DNA of 64,000 nt, taken from assembly GCA_964016885.1 (NCBI GenBank), contig OZ024740.1:288052001-288116000 (forward strand), in the 5' to 3' direction. This document shows, piece by piece, positions 6,204-9,067 of the stretch (within the stretch, counting starts at the first letter, position 1; every line of letters starts with the position of its first letter). The DNA is from Eledone cirrhosa. Its lineage: Eukaryota. The notes beneath the pieces were generated by a model. The model saw only the letters and a list, made by a program, of their open reading frames with translations. It ran no database searches and was not told the origin of the DNA. A program made the translations under genes and the position numbers.

Positions 6204-6206
<3 letters not shown>

Positions 6207-7684
6207 CATTATGAAGAGAGAAGAAACATTTAGATATAATTAGTAATAAAATGTATCATACCTAAACTGTTCCTAAATTCCTCGACTACGTAGTTTCGTG
6301 GCATAAACAAAAACAATATATCAAAGATATAGAGTCCTTGCGAGGTCTGCCGACTTATCAAGAGGATACCTCATTTTACTAGTCTCAAGAACGCGTCTAC
6401 ACGACGTGAGAAAGAATCCCAAAAGGCGGAGGGGGAGATAGTCACGCGATATAACGGTCGAGAAACAGAGCTAAGCCTCTTATAACCACGAAAAAAATAC
6501 CACGGAGGCGGAGGGGGTATTCATATCGAGGCGGTAGAAGAGGTAGTGAAGAAGGCGAGAAGTATGAGTAATGGAAGCTTTCCAGTTGTCCCCACACTTC
6601 AAAGATTGCTCGACCAGAGGGAGTTATTAATACATTTAGAAACACACAGATACATGCGGACACACACATATATACATGAATGCATCCGCACCCAACTGTG
6701 AGTTAAGGGTGCCAACTTCACCGATGTTGCTCAATGAATGACTGGGACAGACCAATTCAGTTTGAACCAGACTGAACCAGTATCAGAGTTAAAAATACAT
6801 TATGAAGAGAGAAGAAACATTTAGATATAATTAGTAATAAAATGTATCATACCTAAACTGTTCCTAAATTCCTCGACTACGTAGTTTCGTGGCATAAACA
6901 AAAACAATATATCAAAGATATAGAGTCCTTGCGAGGTCTGCCGACTTATCAAGAGGATACCTCATTTTACTAGTCTCAAGAACGCGTCTACACGACGTGA
7001 GAAAGAATCCCAAAAGGCGGAGGGGGAGATAGTCACGCGATATAACGGTCGAGAAACAGAGCTAAGCCTCTTATAACCACGAAAAAAATACCACGGAGGC
7101 GGAGGGGGTATTCATATCGAGGCCGTAGAAGAGGTAGTGAAGAAGGCGAGAAGTATGAGTAATGGAAGCTTTCCAGTTGTCCCCACACTTCAAAGATTGC
7201 TCGACCAGAGGGAGTTATTAATACATTTAGAAACACACAGATACATGCGGACACACACATATATACATGAATGCATCCGCACCCAACTGTGAGTTAAGGG
7301 TGCCAACTTCACCGATGTTGCTCAATGAATGACTGGGACAGACCAATTCAGTTTGAACCAGACTGAACCAGTATCAGAGTTAAAAATACATTATGAAGAG
7401 AGAAGAAACATTTAGATATAATTAGTAATAAAATGTATCATACCTAAACTGTTCCTAAATTCCTCGACTACGTAGTTTCGTGGCATAAACAAAAACAATA
7501 TATCAAAGATATAGAGTCCTTGCGAGGTCTGCCGACTTATCAAGAGGATACCTCATTTTACTAGTCTCAAGAACGCGTCTACACGACGTGAGAAAGAATC
7601 CCAAAAGGCGGATGGGGAGATAGTCACGCGATATAACGGTCGAGAAACAGAGCTAAGCCTCTTATAACCACGAAAAAAATACCA
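6204..7684 (-). mobile_element. 591-bp tandem array (about 2.5 units), retrozyme-like, left arm
   Basis: Near-identical units with period 591; HHR on the minus strand at 6279-6366, 6870-6957 and 7461-7548; abuts (TA)n. Confidence 0.85.
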
Positions 7685-7688
7685 AATA

Positions 7689-9062
7689 CTAAATGTTTCT
7701 TCTCTCTTCATAATGTATTTTTAACTCTGATACTGGTTCAGTCTGGTTCAAACTGAATTGGTCTGTCCCAGTCATTCATTGAGCAACATCGGTGAAGTTG
7801 GCACCCTTAACTCACAGTTGGGTGCGGATGCATTCATGTATATATGTGTGTGTCCGCATGTATCTGTGTGTTTCTAAATGTATTAATAACTCCCTCTGGT
7901 CGAGCAATCTTTGAAGTGTGGGGACAACTGGAAAGCTTCCATTACTCATACTTCTCGCCTTCTTCACTACCTCTTCTACGGCCTCGATATGAATACCCCC
8001 TCCGCCTCCGTGGTATTTTTTTCGTGGTTATAAGAGGCTTAGCTCTGTTTCTCGACCGTTATATCGCGTGACTATCTCCCCCTCCGCCTTTTGGGATTCT
8101 TTCTCACGTCGTGTAGACGCGTTCTTGAGACTAGTAAAATGAGGTATCCTCTTGATAAGTCGGCAGACCTCGCAAGGACTCTATATCTTTGATATATTGT
8201 TTTTGTTTATGCCACGAAACTACGTAGTCGAGGAATTTAGGAACAGTTTAGGTATGATACATTTTATTACTAATTATATCTAAATGTTTCTTCTCTCTTC
8301 ATAATGTATTTTTAACTCTGATACTGGTTCAGTCTGGTTCAAACTGAATTGGTCTGTCCCAGTCATTCATTGAGCAACATCGGTGAAGTTGGCACCCTTA
8401 ACTCACAGTTGGGTGCGGATGCATTCATGTATATATGTGTGTGTCCGCATGTATCTGTGTGTTTCTAAATGTATTAATAACTCCCTCTGGTCGAGCAATC
8501 TTTGAAGTGTGGGGACAACTGGAAAGCTTCCATTACTCATACTTCTCGCCTTCTTCACTACCTCTTCTACGGCCTCGATATGAATACCCCCTCCGCCTCC
8601 GTGGTATTTTTTTCGTGGTTATAAGAGGCTTAGCTCTGTTTCTCGACCGTTATATCGCGTGACTATCTCCCCATCCGCCTTTTGGGATTCTTTCTCACGT
8701 CGTGTAGACGCGTTCTTGAGACTAGTAAAATGAGGTATCCTCTTGATAAGTCGGCAGACCTCGCAAGGACTCTATATCTTTGATATATTGTTTTTGTTTA
8801 TGCCACGAAACTACGTAGTCGAGGAATTTAGGAACAGTTTAGGTATGATACATTTTATTACTAATTATATCTAAATGTTTCTTCTCTCTTCATAATGTAT
8901 TTTTAACTCTGATACTGGTTCAGTCTGGTTCAAACTGAATTGGTCTGTCCCAGTCATTCATTGAGCAACATCGGTGAAGTTGGCACCCTTAACTCACAGT
9001 TGGGTGCGGATGCATTCATGTATATATGTGTGTGTCCGCATGTATCTGTGTGTTTCTAAATG

Positions 9063-9067
<5 letters not shown>
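7689..9067 (+). mobile_element. 591-bp tandem array (about 2.3 units), inverted right arm
   Basis: Reverse complement of the left-arm unit; HHR at 8147-8234 and 8738-8825; ends in (TA)n. Confidence 0.85.
8147..8234 (+). ncRNA. Type I hammerhead, U3-A8 variant with extended branched stem II
   Basis: TCCTC-TTGATAA-GT(c)GGCA...TGCCAC-GAAA-CTACGTAG-TC-GAGGA. Palindromic stem III; predicted cut after 8229. Confidence 0.8.

Follow-up and report, generated by a model that had tools for sequence, protein, structure and literature searches.

The window analyzed here, a 64,000-nucleotide stretch of the Eledone cirrhosa genome, contains two tandem arrays of one non-coding repeat that lie on opposite strands, back to back, with both outer ends in (TA)n tracts. 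This arrangement raises the question of which template was copied, and from which primers, to leave the same sequence on both strands of a single target. The best explanation, to which we assign a probability of about 0.68, is that a Penelope-like element (PLE) enzyme, probably of the Neptune type, acted in trans and copied one monomeric RNA circle repeatedly from two nicks. The same figure covers, jointly with this explanation, the statement that the locus arose by recent insertion of a tandem repeat that is abundant, lacks coding sequence and carries a hammerhead.

The retrozyme locus in the window

The first-pass annotation of the window had described 2.5 units on the minus strand and 2.3 units on the plus strand, joined by a 4-nt filler, and re-measurement gave 2.51 and 2.33 units with the filler at the place expected (Table 1). 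In the numbering used throughout, U1 of the unit is window position 7697. When the sequence was compared with itself at a period of 591, a match was observed at 885/887 positions of the left arm and 786/787 of the right arm, and neighbouring periods gave ~25–33%. Identity in the arms was 99.8–99.9%, with three variant positions in all (6533, 7613, and 8673). Both outward-facing 3' ends were indeed located in (TA)n, the left one after AATGTA at U21–22 and the right one after AATGTA plus TTA at U189.

Table 1. Coordinates in the window of the retrozyme arms, their flanks, the hammerhead motifs, the shared variant and the neighboring PLE.
Feature	Position	Strand	Details
Left arm	6204–7684	-	1,481 bp, 2.51 units; inner end U315, outer 3' end U22 (site A)
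Right arm	7689–9067	+	1,379 bp, 2.33 units; inner end U584, outer 3' end U189 (site B)
Filler at the 5'-to-5' joint of the retrozyme arms	7685–7688	.	4 nt
(TA)n target tract, left of retrozyme	6182–6203	.
(TA)n target tract, right of retrozyme	9068–9095	.
Reference 591-nt unit	7697–8287	+	GC 41.6%
"Tail" (U23–189)	8901–9067	+	lies between the two sites; terminal only on the right side
Type I hammerhead motif	8147–8234	+	predicted cleavage after 8229
Hammerhead motif copy	8738–8825	+	predicted cleavage after 8820
Hammerhead motif copy	7461–7548	-	predicted cleavage after 7466
Hammerhead motif copy	6870–6957	-	predicted cleavage after 6875
Hammerhead motif copy	6279–6366	-	predicted cleavage after 6284
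C>A at U386	7613	-	innermost pass of left arm
Same C>A at U386	8673	+	outer pass of right arm
Neptune-type PLE, 5'-truncated, broken	18143–20750		inverted copy of its 3' region, tail ~90 nt
RT end, Cys motif and GIY-YIG frames of the PLE	19415–20228	-

The predicted hammerhead was found in all five copies annotated, that is, in 5/5 passes over the motif in the window. It is composed of a 5-bp stem I, a core with U3-A8 replacing C3-G8, a stem II with a bulged base and a self-complementary stem III segment of 10 nt; the U3-A8 core and the stem II bulge have both been described in PLE hammerheads (PMC4209133). Since the Rfam scan of the window gave no hits at the gathering score, the hammerhead call rests on our own core-and-stem scan. 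The presence of this motif in tandem units without a coding region bears out their assignment to the retrozyme type. The unit had also been called long; at 591 nt it is so in comparison with the ~170–400 nt given for metazoan retrozymes in PMC7229834, but it falls inside the 51–972 bp range given in bioRxiv 2026.07.22.740005.

The fold predicted for the 591-nt unit as a circle reached -172.6 kcal/mol, against -133.3 ± 5.6 for 40 shuffles (z ~ -7). By the same kind of prediction, the hammerhead fold (-21.5) is 1.1 kcal/mol less stable than an alternative one (-22.6), and the hammerhead region by itself folds no better than shuffles.

Layout, end sites and targets across the family

A 28-nt segment of the hammerhead motif has 7,049 exact matches in the genome, and the marker of the window's subfamily occurs 409 times. 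With 49 clusters per 100 motif matches, the family extrapolates to roughly 3,400 loci. The 129 loci parsed combine four selections: the window with 37 top-scoring loci, which are biased toward identity with the window; 48 loci chosen by position among the first 100 matches to the motif; 6 loci picked for the C>A change discussed below; and 37 further young loci. The 48 positional loci plus L067 form the unbiased positional set (n = 49), and the 44 young loci are those behind 100 listed of the 409 subfamily-marker matches, excluding L139. This last locus, with two insertions side by side, was left out of the change spectra, the site-pair and sporadic-repeat counts, and the arm-sharing and end tallies. 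L158 was left out of the end tally, and L080 and L113, with duplicated segments, were left out of change spectra, among them those of the 58-locus set.

Only unit sequence was present between the flanks of the 129 loci, with up to 7 + 4 units per locus, and among the frames listed by an ORF scan of 40 loci, none for RT or EN ran on from the unit. The possibility that the unit is the tail-end fragment of an autonomous PLE was rejected, as no copy ran into an RT/EN frame among the loci scanned and the arms reached up to 7.2 units.

A survey of other loci for the outward-facing layout had been proposed in the annotation, and this layout proved to be the rule of the family rather than a one-off. 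Two arms were observed at 66 of the 129 loci (58 were single-armed and 5 complex) and at 23/49 in the positional set. All 66 showed a minus arm followed by a plus arm, joined 5'-to-5', and no tail-to-tail arrangement was found among the 129. Within its family, the window locus is ordinary.

The outer 3' ends were located either at U22 (site A) or at U187–189 (site B), with a "tail" of 165–167 nt between both sites. One arm ended at A and the other at B in 60/66 two-armed loci; A+A was never seen, five loci had one irregular end, and the lone apparent B+B locus was cut by the edge of the fetched sequence. The A+B pattern was therefore near-strict in the complete loci (60/65). Single arms ended at A in 36 cases, at B in 21 and elsewhere in 1. 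By the A+B rule, each target strand has a start site of its own.

TA repeats were abutted by 179/190 of the 3' ends. The motif AATGTAT is present at both sites, and at 7/62 A ends the third base inward is the A of the target rather than the G of the unit; for these reasons, the data suggest that the nicked (TA)n target would pair with the RNA at priming.

The joints of the A+B loci showed an overlap in 42/60, were blunt in 9/60 and contained a filler in 9/60. In L1 twin priming, two target-strand primers are used, the 3' ends of the segments face outward, the joint shows microhomology, and the first cDNA stops beside the second primer. The twin priming proposed for the window held in that both target strands carry an arm with its 3' end at the target junction, and the two strand primers, the outward 3' ends and the joint microhomology are likewise found here. 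In the strict L1 sense, it was rejected: inner ends lay at most 35 nt from the start site of the other arm in 11/60 and 9/60 cases, against 7.2 by chance, the second site is fixed and away from the end of the first cDNA, and the arms copy overlapping sequence many times. Equal arm lengths were also discarded, since the lengths of the arms in two-armed loci are uncorrelated (rho 0.05). So was a fold-back origin, which needs equal inner phases and equal outer ends: the inner phases of both arms fell within 30 nt in 8/60 loci, a chance-level result (6.2 expected), and no A+A locus exists in the set.

Two loci presented particular junctions. By eye, L081 is flanked by a target-site duplication of ~14 nt where the TA tract is imperfect, which is consistent with staggered nicks. 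The junction filler of L115 (L115:4706–4764) is made of about six copies of one 10-nt piece of the unit, which suggests repeated slippage during arm joining.

A 71%-like neighbor at L074 led to a sister retrozyme family (L209–L233) and not to an ORF. This family is ~74% identical to the unit, with which it has the hammerhead core and both end sites in common, and comprises 1,825 candidates. Its 14 two-armed loci, read by eye, included 11 A+B, 2 apparent B+B and 1 irregular (L222 was checked), and the two apparent B+B loci count against a strict one-site-per-arm rule. No third family was detected by a pattern excluding the two known families, whose 16 matches were all single-base variants of these two.

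Additionally, a near-identical unit was present as one contig in the public runs X1 and X3, in X1 as a single 621-nt cyclic contig that fits a circle or a collapsed tandem alike. When window positions 7100–8300 were compared with public runs, at least half of the sampled words were present in 12 rows, which represent 9 organism codes and 8 studies; these matches may correspond to close relatives, horizontal spread or contamination. No RNA run was among the rows listed, which says nothing about expression, and the one raw-read run compared had 0 reads on this stretch.

Changes shared among passes and the RNA template

Changes were scored at positions read at least twice, and those shared by all passes over a locus (all-pass) were separated from single-pass changes. 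In the 44 young loci, RNA-strand A>G made up 26/33 all-pass and 1/57 single-pass changes (Fisher p 3.6e-15). The 26 A>G events are confined to 10 sites, and counting by distinct site gave 10 A>G vs. 4 T>C among the all-pass changes (p 0.012). The 58 other loci, of at least 97% identity, showed A>G in 18/36 all-pass and 6/69 single-pass changes. Wherever an A>G site was read in both arms, the change was common to both (14/14), and this was the case for only 3/39 of the other changes. General homogenisation is not the cause, since it would not leave the non-A>G changes so rarely in common, and the bias follows the RNA rather than the chromosome, because the arms sit on opposite genome strands.

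The same data bear on the least probable of the alternatives, that the inverted joint and the shared variants are artefacts of assembly or polishing, which we regard as scarcely credible. Near-identical inverted repeats do assemble poorly, and the joint was spanned by no contig among the matches listed, in runs that perhaps come from other individuals. However, ends at site A and site B are found on opposite arms at 60 loci, each with its own joint, and the shared changes are limited to RNA-strand A>G although the arms occupy opposite genome strands.

Strand-specific A>G in double-stranded regions is the signature of ADAR, and the changes observed follow it, with 26 A>G vs. 4 T>C and a mean pairing probability of 0.94 at the A>G sites, which lie in predicted helices, vs. 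0.61 for all A. At ADAR sites a 5' G is depleted and a 3' G is enriched; at the 10 sites a 5' G was present in 1 and a 3' G in 3, with no clear preference. All four allele combinations were observed for seven site pairs, and 7/10 A>G sites recurred in 40 loci of older background; on these two grounds, the recurrence points to repeated editing more than to descent. Descent from common sources accounts for part of the events, since 26 of them fall on 10 sites and 299G and 337G occur together in 4/44 loci. All-pass A>G changes were found in 22/44 young loci, one of them probably an alignment-edge artefact. The window locus is without any A>G change and hence provides no direct evidence of editing.

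Two loci illustrate how restricted these combinations can be. Nine changes, seven of them A>G, were present in all passes of both arms of L115, and the pattern of a three-site haplotype had 7/7 of its matches at L115, in both arms, and nowhere else in the assembly. The double change of L122 gave 5 matches in 3 loci, 3 of them inside L122, against 3,147 for the unchanged sequence.

The simplest reading of these results would be that one edited monomer was copied repeatedly into both arms. The annotation had left the template as "circular or multimeric"; the family data favor the circular alternative, as a monomer. Moreover, 252 passes read through the predicted cleavage site with a change within 4 nt in 4 and an indel at the joint in 0, which favors a closed circle as the putative template.

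The template could instead have been linear multimeric transcripts of source arrays already bearing A>G, with two primers acting on one RNA, as in L1, or on sister transcripts. This is unlikely, although it is the foremost of the alternatives. It would account for the outward position of both 3' ends, for the 29 nt between the inner end of the window's right arm and an A site, and for the joint occurrence of 299G and 337G, and an anole PLE was inserted in vitro with no need of HHR cleavage (PMC11167929). On the other hand, editing unit by unit predicts single-pass A>G, of which a single case in 57 was seen, no source locus for the L115 haplotype exists in the assembly, inner ends do not cluster near the start site of the other arm, and the source arrays would themselves need a monomer bottleneck to be uniform.

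Next in rank, and equally to be considered improbable, is the copying of a single linear monomer with jumps from its 5' end to its 3' end, or of sibling molecules arising by RNA-to-RNA copying, one for each arm. All-or-none A>G would be explained equally well in this way, and linear 5' ends seem real: arms started exactly at U534 in 3/204 cases vs. 0.35 expected, and within U532–536 in 6/204 vs. 1.7 expected, a hint of real hammerhead cleavage, with an excess that is small and not the highest of the inner-end peaks. End-to-end jumps usually scar the joint, however, and the 252 passes through the cleavage site showed no indel there. Copying from siblings would leave all-pass T>C from an edited antisense intermediate, but these were few (4), and two of them are alleles of an older subfamily.

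The highest cluster of arm 5' ends in the family was located at U118–122 (10/204), where the base of a long hairpin is predicted, and is possibly a stop site of reverse transcription. At U484 of L127, T>A was observed in alternate passes (2/5) of one arm, as from a dimeric circle.

The G-to-T variant that had been noticed at both 7613 and 8673 is real and corresponds to a C>A at U386 on the RNA strand, in 2/5 passes; the third variant of the locus, at 6533, is unshared. The shared C>A is one of eight same-position sporadic repeats found in 76 loci, against 0.04 expected. Three of the eight belong to L130, all within one arm, and look like a duplication after insertion. A search for a source locus of the window's C>A led only to 6 other places carrying it, none of them a source, as all are older copies with 92–97% identity. 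A dimer circle was rejected for the window and for L061, where the variants fail to alternate. At L061, two such variants occupy registers that differ between the arms, which a single linear template fails to explain. At L138, one A was read as G, G, G, T. All of these registers are explained by a damaged or modified base in a circle that was misread on some passes. For the window, the most likely origin of the C>A is one such base misread on 2/5 passes, which is the weakest step of the reconstruction, and a short gene conversion fits as well.

That last option belongs to a broader alternative, in which homogenisation at the DNA level or events after insertion (gene conversion, unequal exchange or fold-back duplication) produced the sharing. 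Some sharing within loci does occur, as seen in L130 and the other sporadic repeats, and this may well account for the C>A of the window. As an explanation for the whole pattern it is very unlikely, since such processes would spread every type of change and not, as observed, leave almost all non-A>G changes in one arm, and the fold-back variant fails on the inner phases and outer ends described above.

Penelope-like elements and known systems

The geometry of the retrozyme had been equated with that of the PLE at 18143–20750, and the comparison was confirmed, with a two-end layout and a tail of ~90 nt in that element. The same two-end geometry was observed in the coding PLEs L190 and L203, the former with a 719-aa open RT+Zn+GIY-YIG frame and a tail of ~78 nt. 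L189, L190 and others among the loci L189–L208 are Neptune-type PLE copies with open frames of up to 719 aa. The term "Neptune-type" rests on the RT, Cys and GIY-YIG motifs as read against PMC8557442, because Pfam gave 0 families on four PLE fragments. One protein query detected 37,750 candidate RT fragments in the genome. In the 50 PLE loci (30 + 20) taken from this query, neither an autonomous PLE with unit sequence nor a pLTR homologue was found, only a likeness in simple repeats.

Three features of a PLE derivative, namely partial tandems with an inverted 5'-truncated copy, a tail at one end and an AT-rich microsatellite target, were found in the retrozyme family. Judged from its sequence, the family works like a non-autonomous PLE and shows the retrozyme features that were checked.

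In the mechanism that we favor, transcripts would be cut by the predicted hammerhead after U533 and ligated into a 591-nt circle, and ADAR would edit some adenosines in its helices. The enzyme would then introduce nicks in the two strands of a (TA)n tract. In pairing with the AAUGUAU-like motifs of the RNA, one nicked strand would use site A and the other site B. Both cDNAs would run for several rounds, stop at random and be joined at their 3' ends. The template of the window locus itself would have been unedited. A more specific version, in which a PLE dimer holds one ADAR-edited circle, primes both strands at two dedicated sites, and writes the inosines of the circle into all units of the two arms and its damaged bases into some, stands for us at about even odds.

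Metazoan non-LTR retrozymes (PMC7229834, PMC7761336) likewise consist of non-coding units in tandem, with a type I hammerhead and a GC content below 50%, and they also have a strongly self-paired circle, which is a prediction here, and coexisting PLEs. The route from a primed circRNA through tandem cDNA to integration was proposed for them in the same two papers; genomic evidence for the circle model is added here. Editing appears in those sources merely as a possible cause of circRNA heterogeneity. The present family differs in its PLE-type U3-A8 core and in the inverted second arm at about half of the loci; the word "inverted" has 0 occurrences in the available text of PMC7229834.

The EN+ PLEs (Craig et al., 2021, PMC8557442; PMC3846280) share with this family the partial tandems, the inverted 5'-truncated copy, the tail at one end and the microsatellite targets. 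Here, by contrast, there is no ORF, the tail is 165–167 nt long instead of 30–40, loci reach at most 7 + 4 units, and the one-site-per-arm rule is near-strict (60/65). With the anole Poseidon studied in vitro (Frangieh et al., 2024, PMC11167929), the family shares the cutting and extension of both strands, the AT-rich targets, and two internal sites of RT start, which delimit the tail and both lie downstream of the hammerhead; a dimer has been predicted for it. In that in vitro system the start site is the same for both strands and not homologous to the target, whereas here it differs between arms and is (TA)n-like. The vertebrate retrozymes (Li, Clavereau, Pollet, bioRxiv 10.64898/2026.07.22.740005) likewise have a non-autonomous relationship to PLEs, with units of up to 972 bp. 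Their link to PLEs is based on pLTR homology and co-occurrence, and here it is based on the anatomy of the insertions; local amplification by unequal crossover is discussed for them, whereas arrays born at insertion are favored here.

The arm layout itself is ordinary and corresponds to published PLE architecture (PMC8557442, PMC3846280). Proposals of a circular RNA template for the insertion of retrozymes or PLEs date from 2014 and 2020 (PMC7229834, PMC4209133, PMC7761336), and in published work the origin of PLE tandem and inverted structures and tails has been called still undefined. What is new here is evidence on the template, namely the locus-wide A>G changes common to both arms. No report of editing footprints in retrozyme or PLE insertions, or of the one-site-per-arm rule, was found in a search of titles and abstract starts that covered few subscription journals.

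With this family, the circular-template model can be tested by counting in genome data. The locus-wide A>G changes serve as molecular barcodes pointing to one monomer that was copied many times and fed both arms, and they suggest a possible route from RNA editing to inherited DNA change. If this is true, ADAR editing would be the main source of heritable mutation for this retroelement, the editing state of individual germ-line RNAs would be preserved at thousands of loci, and every insertion would be a natural rolling-circle read of one RNA molecule.

Other elements of the window are also associated with (TA)n tracts. A tandem array at 25879–28094, located between two such tracts, has a 496-bp unit in 4.5 copies at 99%; it contains a CTGATGAG motif, and the core-and-stem scan found no complete type I hammerhead in it. 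This array is possibly another retrozyme. At 9096–9260, a very small two-armed insertion, from the PLE family to which the element at 18143–20750 belongs, abuts the right (TA)n tract of the retrozyme with its tail end. Short fold-back elements lie beside (TA)n at ~5824–6181 and ~9380–9495, and the first of them, with arms of ~150 bp and an extension on one side, displays the same geometry by eye.
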